Assembly (NCBI RefSeq): GCF_054482525.1
Contig: NZ_CM137006.1
DNA length: 64,000 nucleotides
Strand: one strand, 5' to 3'
Part shown: positions 10,018 to 57,347 of the stretch, in pieces
Numbering within the stretch: the stretch's first letter is position 1
How the letters are laid out: every line of letters starts with the position of its first letter
Translations under genes and position numbers: made by a program
Notes under the pieces: model-generated
Database searches by the model: none
What the model was told of the DNA's origin: nothing
Seen by the model: only the letters and a program-made list of their open reading frames with translations

Positions 10018-10492
10018 AACCCCGTCCTTCAGGGCGGGGATATAAGGCGCGGTTTTCCACCTGACCAGGTGTTTGCTGTTGTTCAATGTATTGGCGGATG
10101 ACGGATATTGGCGCACCTCCGCAGCTACTGGCAAAATAGCCAGGACTCCACAAAACGCCTTTGTAGTAATACCTGACAGCAATATCTGGTCGATCTCGTC
10201 GCAGAAACCTATTCGATATGCCTTTGAGGCTGTTTACCAGACTGAATATCGCCAGTTTTGGAGGATAGTTAATTAACAAATGGACGTGATCTGGTTCGCC
10301 ATCCATTTCAATCAGTTCAGCTTCAAAATCAGCACATACATTTGAAAAGTAAGTGCGTAGTTTTTCTGTCGCGTCATGGTCAAAAATCTGGCGTCGGTAT
10401 TTGGTGACAAAGACCCGGTGAACATGCATCAGGAAAACACAATGCCTTCCACGCCGGATATCGGTTTCTTTTTTCACAGACCAAAGTATCAT
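9887..10492 (-). CDS. tnpA: IS200/IS605 Y1 (HUH) transposase TnpA, ORF extended past the element end
   Basis: Translation has the HUH motif (DHVHLLINYPPK) and catalytic-Tyr helix (VIRQYIEQQ); the ORF continues about 50 codons further, through the left-end hairpin and antisense to the yfaY 3' end. Confidence 0.75.
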   Translation of the reverse strand: MILWSVKKETDIRRGRHCVFLMHVHRVFVTKYRRQIFDHDATEKLRTYFSNVCADFEAELIEMDGEPDHVHLLINYPPKLAIFSLVNSLKGISNRFLRRDRPDIAVRYYYKGVLWSPGYFASSCGGAPISVIRQYIEQQQTPGQVENRALYPRPEGRGFTAHWIRSWTQQPQSSHAHWQCPGRLTNGAAYSVPSLRTLPDG

Positions 10493-11751
10493 TTGGCCTG
10501 TGAAACGACTACAGGCATTTAAATTCCAGTTAAGACCCGGTGGTCAACAGGAGCGTGAAATGAGGCGCTTCGCAGGCGCATGTCGTTTCGTTTTCAATCG
10601 TGCTCTGGCACGTCAGAATGAGAATCATGAGGCCGGTAATAAATACATCCCTTACGGGAAAATGGCTTCCTGGCTGGTTGAGTGGAAAAACGCCACTGAA
10701 ACGCAATGGCTTAAAGATGCCCCCTCACAGCCATTGCAACAGTCACTGAAAGACCTTGAGCGGGCTTACAAAAACTTCTTCCAGAATCGGGCTGCTTTTC
10801 CCCGATTCAAAAAGCGGGGACAGAATGATGCATTCCGCTACCCGCAGGGCGTTAAGCTCGATCAGGAAAACAGCCGTATTTTTCTGCCGAAACTTGGCTG
10901 GATGCGCTACCGGAACAGCCGTCAGGTCACGGGTGTTGTAAAAAATGTCACTGTCAGCCAGTCCTGCGGTAAGTGGTACATCAGTATTCAGACAGAAAGT
11001 GAAGTATCAACTCCGGATCACCCTTCAGCATCAATGGTCGGGCTGGATGCTGGCGTGGCTAAACTCGCCACGCTGTCAGATGGCACAGTCTTTGAGCCTG
11101 TAAACAGTTTTCAGAAAAACCAGAAGACGCTGGCGAGACTTCAGCGACAGTTAAGCCGCAAGGTCAAATTCAGCAACAACTGGCAGAAGCAGAAACGCAA
11201 AATACAGCGACTGCATTCCTGTATCGCAAATATCCGCAGGGACTACCTTCACAAAGTCACAACGACCGTCAGCAAAAACCACGCAATGATAGTCATTGAG
11301 GATTTGAAGGTCAGCAACATGTCAAAGTCAGCAGCGGGTACGGTCAGCCAGCCGGGGCGCAATGTCCGGGCAAAATCAGGTTTAAACCGTTCGATACTGG
11401 ATCAGGGCTGGTATGAAATGCGCCGCCAGCTTGAGTACAAGCAGCTCTGGCGTGGCGGTCAGGTGCTTGCTGTTCCGCCAGCGTACACAAGCCAGCGTTG
11501 CACGTGCTGTGGTCATACAGCGAAAGAAAATCGCCTGTCACAAAGTCAATTCAGATGCCAGGTATGTGGATATACAGCGAACGCCGATGTAAATGGCGCT
11601 CGTAACATTTTAGCGGCGGGGCACGCCGTTCTTGCCTGTGGAGGGATGGTGCAGTCAGGCCGCTCGTTGAAGCAGGAACCCACCGAAATGATTCAGGCGA
11701 CAGCCTGAACGTAGCAGGGATCCACGTTCTTCAGGGCGTGGAGGATGTCAA
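10001..11751 (+). mobile_element. IS200/IS605-family insertion sequence (divergent tnpA + tnpB); boundaries approximate (about +/-20 bp)
   Basis: Y1 transposase and TnpB ORFs bracketed by two similar subterminal hairpins on the same strand: ccccgtccttcagggcgggg (10020..10039) and ccacgttcttcagggcgtgg (11722..11741); rhmT homology resumes about 10 nt after the second hairpin. Confidence 0.8.
10500..11708 (+). CDS. tnpB: TnpB (IS605 OrfB family; RNA-guided RuvC-like endonuclease)
   Basis: 402-aa ORF with GTG start; RuvC-I (VGLDAGV), RuvC-II (IVIEDLKV), zinc finger CTCCGH...CQVCGY and RuvC-III (DVNGARNI) motifs all present. Confidence 0.85.
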
Positions 11752-15105: not shown

Positions 15106-19170
<4,065 letters not shown>

Positions 19171-22102: not shown

Positions 22103-23173
22103 TTATTCGCATTTCGGAAAAGTAAAGAAAATATTAATGTATCTTATTAATTTATTATATTGTTCTTGAGTGAATGCTATTTGCACACCTTCAGGATAAT
22201 ATTCACCAGTAATAACCAGTTGTCCATTGCTGTGTTGTACCATTAAACCTTTTTTTTCCTTTGGATCTTCAAACTTAGAATTATCAAACGTGAAGATGTT
22301 ATTTTCCTGTTTTGAGTAAGCAAAGAAATCTCGTGTATAGCTGAAACTATCATTTATTAATGGTGCTAACTTTTTGTCGGCGATATCGATAAGCTCACCA
22401 CTTAATTTATTGATGTATTTCATTTGGTTCAATTTTTTCTGCGCTTGTACAATTTGCTTGTAGGTATTTTTAATTTCCTTAGAAGAATTCTTGAATTTAT
22501 CATAGCGTTCCACGGAGGATGCGTATTTGTACCATTCTGTATTTTTCTCAGAATGTAGTAGCAGGTCTGTATATTTTTTTTGATCGCTGTAAAGTTGACT
22601 TTTAATACTTTCCTCACTGCTGGTTTTATAAGGTTTATCAGAGCTGTTTATTTTTGAAATGTCTTTTTCTGTCGGTGACTGGACCGTGTTGTGGATATTT
22701 TCTTTTATAACATGTTCATTGATGATGTTAATTGCAGTTTCATATTCATTTAAGTTTATTGTTCTTTGTGAAATAAACCCTTCTTTGCTTTCGACACTCA
22801 AAATACCTTCGTTGTTTTCACCTCGGGTAAAGGTAAGGGTATAGGGTTCATAATCCGCTGCAAATTCATTTTTATACGTTATGACATGTTCGACAAAATG
22901 TCTTATTGGTACGAAACTATAACTGTGAACGTCAATTTTTTGGGTCTTGATACTATCAATTGCATCTGAGGCTTTCGTGAAAAAAGTCAATAAATTAGCT
23001 ATGCTGTCTGCTGAGGTTGATAACCCGTATCTACTTTGAGATATTTTTAGAAACTCATCGCAAAAAATCTCAAGTTTCGCGGTTTGTTGTGATTCTTTGT
23101 AAACTTCTGCTGGTTGCAATTTATTATTTTGTAAAATATTACCTCGAGATAAGTGAATAGATGTATTTGGCAT
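22103..23173 (-). CDS. Orphan hypothetical protein on AT-rich islet (about 356 aa, Lys/Asn/Glu/Tyr-rich, no signal peptide or TM segment evident)
   Basis: Long minus-strand ORF in a conspicuously AT-rich block between glpQ and yfaH; start placed at the ATG (MPNTSIHLSRG...) preceded by AAGGA; the track's longer ORF begins at a TTG 12 codons upstream. Confidence 0.6.
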   Translation of the reverse strand: MPNTSIHLSRGNILQNNKLQPAEVYKESQQTAKLEIFCDEFLKISQSRYGLSTSADSIANLLTFFTKASDAIDSIKTQKIDVHSYSFVPIRHFVEHVITYKNEFAADYEPYTLTFTRGENNEGILSVESKEGFISQRTINLNEYETAINIINEHVIKENIHNTVQSPTEKDISKINSSDKPYKTSSEESIKSQLYSDQKKYTDLLLHSEKNTEWYKYASSVERYDKFKNSSKEIKNTYKQIVQAQKKLNQMKYINKLSGELIDIADKKLAPLINDSFSYTRDFFAYSKQENNIFTFDNSKFEDPKEKKGLMVQHSNGQLVITGEYYPEGVQIAFTQEQYNKLIRYINIFFTFPKCE

Positions 23174-23638
23174 AAATGATTCCTTGTATTGTGAGTTAAC
23201 AAGATACAATTTAATCTTTGCAGAATATATTCACTATCAAATTTAGCTCATTTTATTACGAAGACCTTTACGCATGTTAGAAAGTATCATTATTGTTAAT
23301 AAATACGGTAATAAGTAACAAACAGATATTGATAACTTCCCTGACAAGTTATTAAGTATCCCACTTGAAGATTGAGAATGGCTCCAGAGTAAACTGTGTA
23401 CTGTTCGCCGGAGTGTCATTACTCTCAACAATCGGTTTTGACAGTGAGTCGGGCGCTTCATACCGGTTTCTACCTGGAGTCATTGTCACTTCTCCCAACT
23501 GGATAAATATATATCGCCAATTCACAAAGTGGGCCAAAATCAGGTGAAAACGAATTATTACGCCAGGTAAAGGCTATAGTACAACTAAGTGTGGCGAATC
23601 AGGCAGTCTTGCATTTGTCATCAATCTCATGTCTTACA

Positions 23639-23845
23639 TCAAATTTTTCCACTCACCACGAGTTGTTCCGTACACGTTTGTAGTAAAAACAGTGGACTGC
23701 CTTCTACCGGCTTTTCTTTAGCCAGCAACGAAATCTGTCGATAGAAGGTTGGTTCGAGAGGAACGGAACACAATTCACCTGCAATGGTTTTCAGCGTCAA
23801 CTCTGGTAATAAGGCGATGCCTAATCCCTGTCGAATAAAATTCAT
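23639..23845 (-). pseudogene. yfaH: yfaH: C-terminal remnant of a LysR-family regulator
   Basis: 68-aa ORF MNFIRQGLGIALLPELTLKTIAGELCSVPLEPTFYRQISLLAKEKP... resembles only the C-terminal end of a LysR substrate-binding domain. Confidence 0.55.
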
Positions 23846-24060
23846 CGCTGTATCCGCCTGATTAAATTCACATTTTATCTGCTGGGTGCACTATTAGTGG
23901 TAGTGGCTGGTGGAGTCTATGCGCTGCAAATGAAGGGTAAAAGCGGTGTCGCGCTAGTAGTGGCAAAAGAAATTCATTAATACGACACGTTTCATTAAGA
24001 TTTTTCGCAGGTAACCACCTATAGTCATTGTCGTAAATAAAAAATGACAGGCGATAGGGT

Positions 24061-33956: not shown

Positions 33957-36584
33957 ATGAGCGACCTTGCGAGAGAAATTACACCGGTCAACATTGAGGA
34001 AGAGCTGAAGAGCTCCTATCTGGATTATGCGATGTCGGTCATTGTTGGCCGTGCGCTGCCAGATGTCCGAGATGGCCTGAAGCCGGTACACCGTCGCGTA
34101 CTTTACGCCATGAACGTACTAGGCAATGACTGGAACAAAGCCTATAAAAAATCTGCCCGTGTCGTTGGTGACGTAATCGGTAAATACCATCCCCATGGTG
34201 ACTTGGCGGTTTATGACACGATCGTCCGTATGGCGCAGCCATTCTCGCTGCGTTACATGCTGGTAGACGGTCAGGGTAACTTCGGTTCCATCGACGGCGA
34301 CTCTGCGGCGGCAATGCGTTATACGGAAATCCGTCTGGCGAAAATTGCCCATGAACTGATGGCCGATCTCGAAAAAGAGACGGTCGATTTCGTTGATAAC
34401 TATGACGGCACGGAAAAAATTCCCGACGTCATGCCAACCAAAATTCCTAACCTGCTGGTGAACGGTTCTTCCGGTATCGCCGTAGGTATGGCAACCAACA
34501 TCCCGCCGCACAACCTGACGGAAGTCATCAACGGTTGTCTGGCGTATATCGATGATGAAGACATCAGCATTGAAGGGCTGATGGAACACATCCCGGGGCC
34601 GGACTTCCCGACGGCGGCAATCATTAATGGTCGTCGCGGTATTGAAGAAGCTTACCGTACCGGTCGCGGCAAGGTATATATCCGCGCCCGTGCTGAAGTG
34701 GAAGTTGACGCCAAAACCGGACGTGAAACCATTATCGTCCATGAAATTCCGTATCAGGTGAACAAAGCGCGCCTGATCGAGAAGATTGCGGAACTGGTAA
34801 AAGAAAAACGCGTGGAAGGCATCAGCGCGCTGCGTGACGAGTCTGACAAAGACGGTATGCGCATCGTGATTGAAGTGAAACGCGATGCGGTTGGTGAAGT
34901 TGTGCTTAACAACCTCTACTCCCAGACCCAGTTGCAGGTTTCTTTCGGTATCAACATGGTGGCATTGCACCATGGTCAGCCGAAGATCATGAACCTGAAA
35001 GACATCATCGCGGCGTTTGTTCGTCACCGCCGTGAAGTGGTGACCCGTCGTACTATTTTCGAACTGCGTAAAGCTCGCGATCGTGCTCATATCCTTGAAG
35101 CATTAGCCGTGGCGCTGGCGAACATCGACCCGATCATCGAACTGATCCGTCATGCGCCGACGCCTGCAGAAGCGAAAACTGCGCTGGTTGCTAATCCGTG
35201 GCAGCTGGGCAACGTTGCCGCCATGCTCGAACGTGCGGGCGATGATGCTGCGCGTCCGGAATGGCTGGAGCCAGAGTTCGGCGTGCGTGATGGTCTGTAC
35301 TACCTGACCGAACAGCAAGCTCAGGCGATTCTGGATCTGCGTTTGCAGAAACTGACCGGCCTTGAGCACGAAAAACTGCTCGACGAATACAAAGAGCTGC
35401 TGGATCAGATCGCAGAACTGCTGCGTATTCTTGGCAGTGCCGATCGTCTGATGGAAGTGATCCGCGAAGAGCTGGAGCTGGTTCGTGAACAGTTCGGCGA
35501 CAAACGTCGTACTGAAATCACTGCCAACAGCGCCGACATCAACCTGGAAGATCTGATCACCCAGGAAGATGTGGTCGTGACGCTCTCTCACCAGGGCTAC
35601 GTTAAATATCAGCCGCTTTCTGAATACGAAGCGCAGCGTCGTGGCGGGAAAGGTAAATCTGCCGCACGTATTAAAGAAGAAGACTTTATTGACCGACTGC
35701 TGGTGGCGAACACCCACGACCATATTCTGTGCTTCTCCAGCCGTGGTCGCGTCTATTCGATGAAAGTCTATCAGTTGCCGGAAGCCACTCGTGGCGCGCG
35801 TGGTCGTCCGATCGTCAACCTGCTGCCGCTGGAGCAGGACGAACGTATCACTGCGATCCTGCCGGTGACCGAGTTTGAAGAAGGCGTGAAAGTCTTCATG
35901 GCGACCGCTAACGGTACTGTGAAGAAAACCGTCCTCACCGAATTCAACCGTCTGCGTACCGCCGGTAAAGTGGCGATCAAACTGGTTGAAGGCGATGAGC
36001 TGATCGGCGTTGACCTGACCAGCGGCGAAGACGAAGTAATGCTGTTCTCCGCCGAAGGTAAAGTGGTGCGCTTTAAAGAGTCTTCTGTCCGTGCGATGGG
36101 CTGCAACACCACCGGTGTTCGCGGTATTCGTTTAGGCGAAGGCGATAAAGTCGTCTCTCTGATCGTGCCTCGTGGCGATGGCGCAATCCTCACCGCAACG
36201 CAGAACGGTTATGGTAAACGTACCGCAGTGGCGGAATACCCGACTAAGTCGCGTGCGACGAAAGGGGTTATCTCCATCAAGGTTACCGAACGTAACGGTT
36301 TAGTGGTTGGCGCGGTGCAGGTAGATGACTGCGATCAGATCATGATGATCACCGATGCCGGTACGCTGGTACGTACTCGCGTTTCGGAAATCAGCATCGT
36401 GGGCCGTAACACCCAGGGCGTGATCCTCATCCGTACTGCGGAAGATGAAAACGTAGTGGGTCTGCAACGTGTTGCTGAACCGGTTGACGAGGAAGATCTG
36501 GATACTATCGACGGCAGTGCCGCGGAAGGGGACGATGAAATCGCTCCGGAAGTGGACGTTGACGACGAGCCAGAAGAAGAATAA
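33957..36584 (+). CDS. gyrA: DNA gyrase subunit A, Ser83Leu variant
   Basis: 875-aa ORF beginning [47 protein letters not shown]; residues 81-87 read GDLAVYD (codon 83 = TTG at 34203..34205). Confidence 0.95.
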
Positions 36585-36732: not shown

Positions 36733-43580
<6,848 letters not shown>

Positions 43581-45234: not shown

Positions 45235-46011
45235 ATGCGAAAGATTTTTCTTCCGTTGTTACTGGTGGCGCTTTCGCCTGTCGCTCACAGTGAAGGTGTG
45301 CAGGAAGTCGAGATTGATGCACCGCTCTCTGGCTGGCATCCGGCAGAGGGCGAAGATGCCAGTTTTTCACAATCGATCAATTACCCGGCGTCGTCCGTCA
45401 ACATGGCAGATGATCAAAATATCTCAGCGCAGATCCGCGGCAAAATAAAGAATTATGCTGCGGCGGGTAAAGTTCAGCAGGGCCGGCTGGTGGTCAACGG
45501 TGCCAGTATGCCGCAGAGAATTGAATCCGATGGTTCATTTGCACGCCCTTATATTTTCACTGAAGGCAGCAACAGCGTGCAGGTCATCAGCCCAGATGGG
45601 CAAAGCCGACAAAAAATGCAGTTTTACTCAACGCCGGGCGCTGGAGTGATCCGCGCGCGTTTACGGCTGGTTCTCTCCTGGGATACGGACAATACCGACC
45701 TCGATCTTCACGTTGTCACACCTGATGGCGAACACGCCTGGTACGTTAACACCGTGCTGAAAAACAGTGGTGCACTGGATATGGATGTCACGACGGGGTA
45801 CGGACCCGAGATTTTCGCCATGCCAGCGCCAGTTCACGGACGCTATCAGGTGTATATCAACTACTATGGCGGACGCAGCGAAACGGAATTGACGACCGCC
45901 CAACTGACGCTGATCACCGATGAAGGATCGGTCAATGAGAAACAGGAAACATTTATTGTACCGATGCGTAATGCTGGCGAGTTGACGCTGGTGAAAAGTT
46001 TTGACTGGTGA
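45235..46011 (+). CDS. yfaP: YfaP (DUF2135-family protein)
   Basis: 258-aa ORF MRKIFLPLLLVALSPVAHSEG... (signal peptide), last gene of the yfaA-T-S-Q-P cluster. Confidence 0.8.
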   Translation: MRKIFLPLLLVALSPVAHSEGVQEVEIDAPLSGWHPAEGEDASFSQSINYPASSVNMADDQNISAQIRGKIKNYAAAGKVQQGRLVVNGASMPQRIESDGSFARPYIFTEGSNSVQVISPDGQSRQKMQFYSTPGAGVIRARLRLVLSWDTDNTDLDLHVVTPDGEHAWYVNTVLKNSGALDMDVTTGYGPEIFAMPAPVHGRYQVYINYYGGRSETELTTAQLTLITDEGSVNEKQETFIVPMRNAGELTLVKSFDW

Positions 46012-46285
46012 TCCATCCTTTCACACAACCTGGCTCTCTCTTTTTTCAGATAAGACTGCTGGGCGATCTGCCGACGCCAGGATATAACCATTAACAAGCG
46101 TCGGCAGATTGGTCATTTCTTGTTGTTCGTACGGAAAACTGTCCATTTACTCCGGCTTTCCTGATTAAGGCAATGGTTTCTAAGCGATACGCATTATTGC
46201 AATGGTGACAGAACATTGCGGTAACACGCTTTTACCGCTACCTTAACCACACTCCATCGGTCACCTGAGGCGGAGCTTCGCCCCT

Positions 46286-55632: not shown

Positions 55633-56697
55633 ATGAAAAACGCCACATGCTTAACTGACGATCAACGCTGGCAATCTGTCTTAGCCCGCGACCCGAACGC
55701 CGACGGCGAATTCGTTTTCGCCGTGCGCACCACGGGTATCTTTTGCCGTCCGTCTTGCCGAGCCAGACATGCCTTGCGGGAAAATGTCTCCTTCTACGCA
55801 AATGCCAGCGAGGCGCTTGCCGCTGGCTTTCGTCCCTGCAAACGTTGTCAGCCAGACAAAGCCAATCCCCTGCAACATCGCCTTGATAAAATTACCCACG
55901 CCTGCCGACTTCTGGAACAGGAAACGCCTGTAACGCTGGAAGCCTTAGCCGACCAGGTGGCGATGAGTCCATTTCATTTGCATCGGTTGTTTAAAGCGAC
56001 TACCGGAATGACGCCTAAAGCCTGGCAACAGGCCTGGCGCGCTCGCCGTTTGCGCGAATTGCTGGCGAAAGGGGAGAGCGTGACTACATCTATTCTTAAC
56101 GCCGGATTCCCCGACAGCAGCAGTTACTACCGCAAAGCCGACGAAACGCTGGGCATGACGGCTAAACAATTCCGTCACGGTGGCGAAAATCTGGCGGTGC
56201 GTTACGCGCTGGCTGATTGTGAGCTGGGCCGTTGCCTGGTGGCAGAAAGCGAGCGGGGGATTTGCGCGATATTACTGGGCGATGATGACGGGACATTAAT
56301 CAGCGAGTTGCAGCAGATGTTTCCCGCTGCCGACAACGCGCCTGCCGATTTGACGTTTCAACAACATGTGCGTGAAGTGATCGCCAGCCTCAATCAACGC
56401 GATACGCCGCTGACGTTACCGCTGGACATTCGCGGCACTGCTTTTCAGCAACAAGTCTGGCAGGCACTGCGCACGATACCTTGCGGTGAAACCGTCAGTT
56501 ATCAGCAACTGGCGAACGCCATCGGCAAACCGAAAGCGGTACGGGCCGTTGCCAGCGCCTGTGCCGCCAACAAGCTGGCTATCGTAATACCCTGTCATCG
56601 GGTGGTCCGTGGTGATGGCACACTTTCCGGTTACCGCTGGGGCGTGTTGCGTAAAGCACAACTGCTGCGCCGCGAAGCTGAGAATGAGGAGAGGTAA
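55633..56697 (+). CDS. ada: Ada: methylated-DNA-protein-cysteine methyltransferase / AraC-type regulator
   Basis: 354-aa ORF MKNATCLTDDQRWQSVLARDPNADGEFVFAVRTTGIFCRPSCRAR... with the PCHRV active site. Confidence 0.92.
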   Translation: MKNATCLTDDQRWQSVLARDPNADGEFVFAVRTTGIFCRPSCRARHALRENVSFYANASEALAAGFRPCKRCQPDKANPLQHRLDKITHACRLLEQETPVTLEALADQVAMSPFHLHRLFKATTGMTPKAWQQAWRARRLRELLAKGESVTTSILNAGFPDSSSYYRKADETLGMTAKQFRHGGENLAVRYALADCELGRCLVAESERGICAILLGDDDGTLISELQQMFPAADNAPADLTFQQHVREVIASLNQRDTPLTLPLDIRGTAFQQQVWQALRTIPCGETVSYQQLANAIGKPKAVRAVASACAANKLAIVIPCHRVVRGDGTLSGYRWGVLRKAQLLRREAENEER

Positions 56698-57347
56698 TGT
56701 TGGATCTGTTTGCCGATGCTGAACCGTGGCAAGAGCCACTGGCGGCTGGTGCGGTAATTTTACGGCGTTTTGCTTTTAACGCTGCGGAGCAACTGATCCG
56801 CGATATTAATGATGTTGCCAGCCAGTCGCCGTTTCGCCAGATGGTCACTCCAGGCGGATATACCATGTCGGTGGCGATGACCAATTGTGGGCATCTGGGC
56901 TGGACGACCCATCGGCAAGGTTATCTCTATTCGCCCATTGATCCGCAAACAAATAAACCGTGGCCCGCCATGCCACAAAGCTTTCATGATTTATGTCAAC
57001 GTGCGGCTACGGCGGCGGGCTATCCAGATTTCCAGCCAGATGCTTGTCTTATCAACCGCTACGCTCCTGGCGCGAAACTGTCGCTGCATCAGGATAAAGA
57101 CGAACCGGATCTGCGCGCGCCGATTGTTTCTGTTTCTCTGGGCTTACCCGAGATTTTTCAATTTGGCGGCCTGAAACGAAATGATCCGCTAAAAAGATTG
57201 TTGTTGGAACATGGCGATGTGGTGGTATGGGGCGGTGAATCGCGGCTGTTTTATCATGGCATTCAACCGTTGAAAGCGGGGTTTCATCCACTCACCACCG
57301 ACTGCCTCTACAACCTGACATTCCGTCAGGCAGGTAAAAAAGAATAA
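56697..57347 (+). CDS. alkB: AlkB Fe(II)/2-oxoglutarate-dependent DNA/RNA dealkylase
   Basis: 216-aa ORF MLDLFADAEPWQEPLAAGAVILRRFAF...; start overlaps the ada stop (TAATG). Confidence 0.92.
   Translation: MLDLFADAEPWQEPLAAGAVILRRFAFNAAEQLIRDINDVASQSPFRQMVTPGGYTMSVAMTNCGHLGWTTHRQGYLYSPIDPQTNKPWPAMPQSFHDLCQRAATAAGYPDFQPDACLINRYAPGAKLSLHQDKDEPDLRAPIVSVSLGLPEIFQFGGLKRNDPLKRLLLEHGDVVVWGGESRLFYHGIQPLKAGFHPLTTDCLYNLTFRQAGKKE

Follow-up and report, generated by a model that had tools for sequence, protein, structure and literature searches.

The gyrA S83L genotype, very probably a genuine single-base change, in an Escherichia coli clone assigned to phylogroup D

In the gyrase of E. coli, both Ser83 and Asp87 of GyrA anchor a water–Mg2+ bridge, which mainly positions the quinolone drug (PMC9917921). 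The substitution S83A confers no resistance; for the bulkier leucine, steric disruption of the bridge was proposed (PMC9917921). When introduced alone into isogenic derivatives of MG1655, S83L raised the ciprofloxacin MIC 24-fold, from 0.016 to 0.38 µg/ml, at no fitness cost (relative fitness of 1.01), and the MIC was 1 µg/ml for S83L combined with parC S80I and 32 µg/ml for the triple mutant (PMC2714960); these effect sizes were measured in K-12, a background other than that of the DNA analyzed here. Under drug, S83L outcompetes other first-step gyrA alleles, and in 98% of resistant clinical isolates it was inferred to have come first (PMC5400412). Where S83L was the sole mechanism detected, clinical isolates had NAL zones of 6–10 mm and CIP zones of 17–29 mm (PMC12211035).

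The stretch of DNA that was analyzed, 64,000 nucleotides in length and hereafter called the window, encodes a gyrA gene with the following features:

33957..36584, plus strand: gyrA coding sequence, DNA gyrase subunit A, 875 amino acids plus stop (ORF list and translation)
34155..34274, plus strand: QRDR, codons 67–106, as in K-12 except for residue 83
34203..34205, plus strand: codon 83, TTG (Leu), with the derived T at 34204 in place of ancestral C (codon count, comparison with K-12 and siblings)
34215..34217, plus strand: codon 87, wild-type GAC (Asp), with the second anchor of the bridge intact (sequence and sibling comparison)
34320..34322, plus strand: codon 122, Tyr, intact within its context of ten residues
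35634..35654, plus strand: GyrA box QRRGGKG, amino acids 560–566 (motif search)
35988..35990, plus strand: codon 678, GAA (Glu; GAC, Asp, in K-12; comparison with K-12)

The protein scored 1307.9 bits against the NCBIfam GyrA equivalog TIGR01063 (cutoff of 877) and 1256.5 against NF004043 (cutoff of 902), and its scores with the ParC models were under their cutoffs. Tyr122, the catalytic tyrosine of DNA cleavage, was present, as was the GyrA box, a motif of the C-terminal domain that tells gyrase from topoisomerase IV. On the TIGR01063 match, Tyr122, and the GyrA box, the product is assigned as intact GyrA. The gene order ubiG–gyrA–yfaA was that of K-12 (b2230–b2232), placing the gene at the orthologous chromosomal position, and gyrA was annotated at the same place in three near-identical genomes. 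Many solved structures of E. coli GyrA cover the region (e.g., 3nuh, 6rks, and 1ab4). An ORF of 323 amino acids on the minus strand (34119..35090), lying over the QRDR and codon 83, was rejected as mechanical: it was annotated in no relative, and the gene is highly conserved.

The gyrA genes of the window and of K-12 MG1655, both of 2628 nt, aligned without gaps and had 98.1% identity, with 50 nucleotide differences in 50 codons. Forty-eight of these codons were synonymous; S83L and D678E were the only amino acid changes. Glu678 was also found in all siblings with Ser83 as well as in MEW and CFIAFB20140388, and D678E is regarded as a lineage polymorphism and not as a resistance site.

The sequence-only reading of this DNA had reported a TTG codon at position 83, with TCG in wild-type E. 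coli and GAC at codon 87, and had quoted a QRDR peptide of 17 residues; each of these points was borne out. Counting 82 codons from the ATG at 33957 placed codon 83 at 34203, where TTG was read directly, and the sequence from codon 82, GAC TTG GCG GTT TAT GAC, is translated as D82 L83 A84 V85 Y86 D87. TCG was seen at this codon in the gyrA gene of K-12 MG1655, and the peptide was found in the GyrA translation. The boundaries of the QRDR are the established ones. The other QRDR positions checked were wild-type (A51, A67, G81, D82, A84, D87, Q106, and A196), so the genotype, which had been described as a single-step one, is such within gyrA. A second gyrA substitution at Asp87, characteristic of the multi-step high-level genotype, was not found, codon 87 being GAC. 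The description of S83L as the canonical first-step change, giving nalidixic acid resistance and lower fluoroquinolone susceptibility, agrees with the literature (PMC2714960, PMC5400412, PMC12211035). The window is classed as a member of the known gyrA S83L resistance-allele class, the phenotype of which comes from literature on other strains.

A 25-kb query around gyrA retrieved three complete genomes at a rounded identity of 100.0%, all others being at or below 98.3%. These three could not be taken as identical to the window: compared base by base, each of them differed from it inside gyrA. The window and the genomes of strains SCU-102 (CP051753; rectal swab of a healthy student, California), 19KM1776 (CP151009; dog, Switzerland), and PCN033 (CP006632; porcine ExPEC of serogroup O11 and phylogroup D, PMC4578781) aligned in perfect colinearity across 64 kb and varied at only 18 sites. 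The complete sibling genomes had 8–10 SNPs relative to the window in 64 kb: PCN033 had 8, and SCU-102, the nearest sibling with Ser83, differed at 10 of the 64,000 sites. The window is placed in this phylogroup D clone, not in K-12. A K-12 background was not found: as noted above, gyrA differed from that of MG1655 at 50 nucleotides, and the ato operon was missing from the window.

Phylogroup D is not known to occur in combination with ST131. The designation "D, ST131" given to PCN033 in a table of a 2026 paper was set aside for this reason and was not relied on.

Among the four colinear genomes, three SNPs were private to the window:

45235..46011, plus strand: yfaP, with G>T at 45746 leading to YfaP G171V, absent from the three complete-genome siblings
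56697..57347, plus strand: alkB, with G>T at 57307 leading to AlkB Arg204Leu (R204L)
61672: intergenic SNP

All three were included in the draft contig JATAOU010000009.1 (GCA_036915595.1), which was the same as the window over 35235–64000 and which stems from the source or a clone-mate. YfaP G171V was present in at least 24 public contigs, comprising NCBI drafts, Logan run assemblies, and an ENA metagenome assembly; it is taken to define a sub-lineage that contains the window.

Several further features of the window were recorded in the comparison with the siblings:

10067..11708: IS200/IS605 element (partial tnpA and full tnpB/InsQ) between yfaY and an MFS transporter gene
22103..23980: gene remnants between glpQ and inaA
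22103..23173: frameshifted hypothetical gene of this remnant cluster
23639..23887: LysR-family fragment of the same cluster, with a small partial ORF
38960..43580, plus strand: yfaS, the alpha-2-macroglobulin gene, which a frameshift divides into two ORFs (1011 and 533 amino acids)
46012..46285: interval after yfaP, which is directly followed by rcsC

Since yfaP is directly followed by rcsC, the ato (acetoacetate) locus is wholly absent; in other E. coli lineages atoB adjoins yfaP, and the next-closest genomes carry atoS in that interval. The yfaS gene was annotated as a frameshifted pseudogene in all three siblings and was intact, encoding about 1504 amino acids, in other lineages. The remnants between glpQ and inaA were likewise all annotated as pseudogenes in the three siblings. 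Within tnpB, SCU-102 had five clustered SNPs at 10895–11017, where the other genomes were identical; this pattern points to gene conversion among copies of the IS.

Of the 18 variable sites, two fell in gyrA, and both were canonical resistance nucleotides, in codons 83 and 87. At 34204, T was found in the window and PCN033, and C in SCU-102 and 19KM1776, the gyrA genes of which were one base from that of the window and had TCG at codon 83. At 34215, A was found in PCN033 (AAC, D87N), and G in the window, SCU-102, and 19KM1776; D87N was the sole gyrA difference of PCN033 from the window. Relatives retrieved via a YfaQ look-up, none of them with the YfaP G171V marker, included GCA_024766655.1 and GCA_003324445.1, both with TCG at codon 83, and GCA_045954045.1, which had TTG at codon 83 and GAC at codon 87 and carried 43462-A, common to the TCG strains SCU-102 and GCA_003324445.1. 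Ser83 was also the state in MEW and CFIAFB20140388, whose alleles, though of this group, are less closely related.

Because the near-isogenic siblings carry TCG, the C>T change at 34204 is derived on the clone's own allele, and Ser83 in the closest siblings as well as in MEW and CFIAFB20140388 indicates that Leu83 was derived recently. We are nearly certain that the S83L target-site mutation is genuine and consists of a single C>T at 34204 on this allele. The window and PCN033 share no other derived SNP and thus may not owe Leu83 to common descent; on the simplest reading of the siblings' sequences, Leu83 had at least two origins within the clone.

PCN033 carried GyrA S83L and D87N together with ParC S80I and E84G (parC at 15320..17578 of the extracted PCN033 segment L028). 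In SCU-102 and 19KM1776, ParC was wild-type; ParE was that of K-12 in all three strains. The amino acid differences in gyrA and parC among the members of the clone lay solely at QRDR resistance codons. From these sibling genotypes it follows that the clone shows 0, 1, and 4 target mutations, the 1-mutation stage being represented by the window as judged on gyrA, since the window does not extend to parC and parE, which are some 0.9 Mb distant. PCN033 is a widely used porcine ExPEC model strain, and it carries the full set of target mutations; its genome paper makes no mention of quinolones and gives neither a quinolone phenotype nor a sequence type.

The recurrence of the codon was assessed in 5426 complete RefSeq E. 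coli genomes with 30-mers built so that megablast seeded only on the exact codon 83. The TTG 30-mer was found in 2294 genomes (42%) and the TCG 30-mer in 2767; 364 genomes matched neither, having another state of codon 83 or a flanking polymorphism. Asp87 was kept in 483 (411 + 72) of the 2294 TTG genomes, and thus, of every five genomes with Leu83, roughly one is single-step in gyrA. One plasmid-classed record carried the TTG 30-mer of gyrA, and one of the 5426 genomes had no gyrA match at all. In the assembly collection, 8174 blocks were on record with the exact GyrA of 875 amino acids. At ten sampled places an identical GyrA was encoded by alleles with 31–49 synonymous differences from that of the window; these places belonged to other lineages, with atoB beside yfaP. 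As judged from these alleles, the recurrence of S83L is a textbook case of convergent evolution.

As to origin, the sequence-only reading had proposed either a NalR laboratory derivative or a clinical isolate exposed to quinolones. Only half of this held: the background was not that of a K-12 laboratory strain, and the nearest relatives were wild phylogroup D isolates; as S83L is fitness-neutral, quinolone exposure of the isolate or its host need not be implied. A wild isolate could still have yielded a spontaneous NalR derivative, selected in the laboratory as a marker for conjugation or colonization. S83L accounts for 25–28% of first-step mutants in nalidixic acid selection in vitro (PMC5400412), and a single step with Asp87 intact is the expected product of such selection. 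Against this, the background is that of no laboratory strain, and YfaP G171V and AlkB R204L are each present in at least 24 public contigs, including raw-run and metagenome assemblies, which argues for natural circulation of the sub-lineage; moreover, S83L as the only gyrA change is common in nature, as the 483 complete genomes demonstrate. We therefore consider laboratory selection unlikely.

Import of Leu83 by short-tract homologous recombination from another S83L lineage would also place TTG on this allele. The ten sampled S83L alleles were the same as the window for 362–566 bp around codon 83, so that any tract of lesser length could have been imported unseen. However, no flanking donor polymorphism was found, gyrA is one base from that of the Ser83 siblings, and a tract of less than 0.6 kb is a less parsimonious explanation than a single C>T mutation, for which a rate of about 1e-9 was measured (PMC5400412), under selection; such an import is very unlikely.

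The T at 34204 rests on a single sequence, and the nearest complete genomes have C at this position, as would be the case if the strain were truly Ser83 (TCG) and the T a sequencing or assembly error. Yet, given only 10 differences across 64 kb, a C>T falling exactly at 34204 has a probability of about 5e-5; in addition, PCN033 and GCA_045954045.1, two assemblies independent of each other, have TTG on this same allele background, and the site lies outside any homopolymer. An error is thus very unlikely. That Leu83 is neutral, a mere lineage polymorphism devoid of any quinolone effect in this background, as D678E in the same gene is a lineage polymorphism and as S83L, having no measurable fitness cost, could persist drug-free, is scarcely credible, given that Ser83 is found in the closest siblings and in distant alleles and Leu is recently derived, that purified S83L GyrA enzyme and isogenic strains were directly shown to be resistant (PMC2714960, PMC9917921), and that the same change recurs on many backgrounds.

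The preferred reading remains that of a genuine S83L target-site mutation. Genotype, derived state, and recurrence were read from the genomes compared here; for the biochemical mechanism and the phenotype we draw on the literature. In wild-type gyrase, the hydroxyl of Ser83 and the carboxylate of Asp87 hydrogen-bond the waters of a Mg2+ ion chelated by the quinolone's C3/C4 keto-acid, and the resulting water–metal-ion bridge places the drug in the DNA-cleavage complex. With the bulky side chain of Leu83, one anchor would be lost and the bridge sterically disrupted, so that the drug would stabilize cleaved DNA poorly; the Leu83 gyrase would be poorly trapped by quinolones yet catalytically fit. 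The expected outcome is nalidixic acid resistance and a ciprofloxacin susceptibility about 20-fold lower (MIC of about 0.25–0.5 µg/ml), an MIC that would lie around or below clinical breakpoints and would mark the first step on the usual multi-step route to high-level fluoroquinolone resistance.

The second private amino acid change, AlkB R204L, recurs in the assembly collection, with 44 blocks on record; each of the 24 contigs that were read carried it. Arg204 of AlkB forms a salt bridge with the C5-carboxylate of the co-substrate 2-oxoglutarate (PMC7467159), and in view of this contact AlkB R204L may be inactive. If so, 3-methylcytosine left unrepaired might make C>T changes such as TCG>TTG arise more often, and a DNA-repair defect would be tied to the way in which resistance emerges in a lineage that is in circulation. 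The combined reading, in which near-isogenic human, dog, and pig isolates keep the 0-, 1-, and 4-mutation stages and AlkB R204L may link a repair defect to resistance, is in our estimation a very unlikely one.

For the isolate, nalidixic acid resistance and low-level fluoroquinolone non-susceptibility are predicted. The strain would be one or two mutations (parC S80I, gyrA D87N) short of clinical resistance, a path that PCN033 has finished. Much is already firmly known about S83L, including how it acts, that it is fitness-neutral, and that it evolves convergently, and general biology gains nothing new from this case; its practical value is that of routine annotation of a resistance genotype. 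Of mild interest are only the series of natural alleles inside a single clone and the incidental AlkB finding.

Among known systems, the S80I change in ParC of topoisomerase IV affects the equivalent serine of the equivalent helix, which serves as an anchor of the same water–metal-ion bridge (PMC3632122, PMC9917921). It concerns, however, a different enzyme, the gene of which lies outside the window, and alone it causes no MIC rise in E. coli (PMC2714960). The S83L allele of E. coli gyrA (isogenic MG1655 derivative LM378; catalogue entry gyrA_S83L) has the same gene, codon, TCG>TTG change, and Asp87 as the window; in contrast to the MG1655-type allele, S83L of the window is on a phylogroup D allele with 48 synonymous differences and D678E. 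SCU-102 and 19KM1776 belong to the same clone and carry the same allele, but differ by the ancestral TCG and have wild-type ParC and ParE. The gyrA gene of PCN033, a member of the same clone, has TTG on the same allele, and this strain is further on by GyrA D87N and by ParC S80I and E84G.
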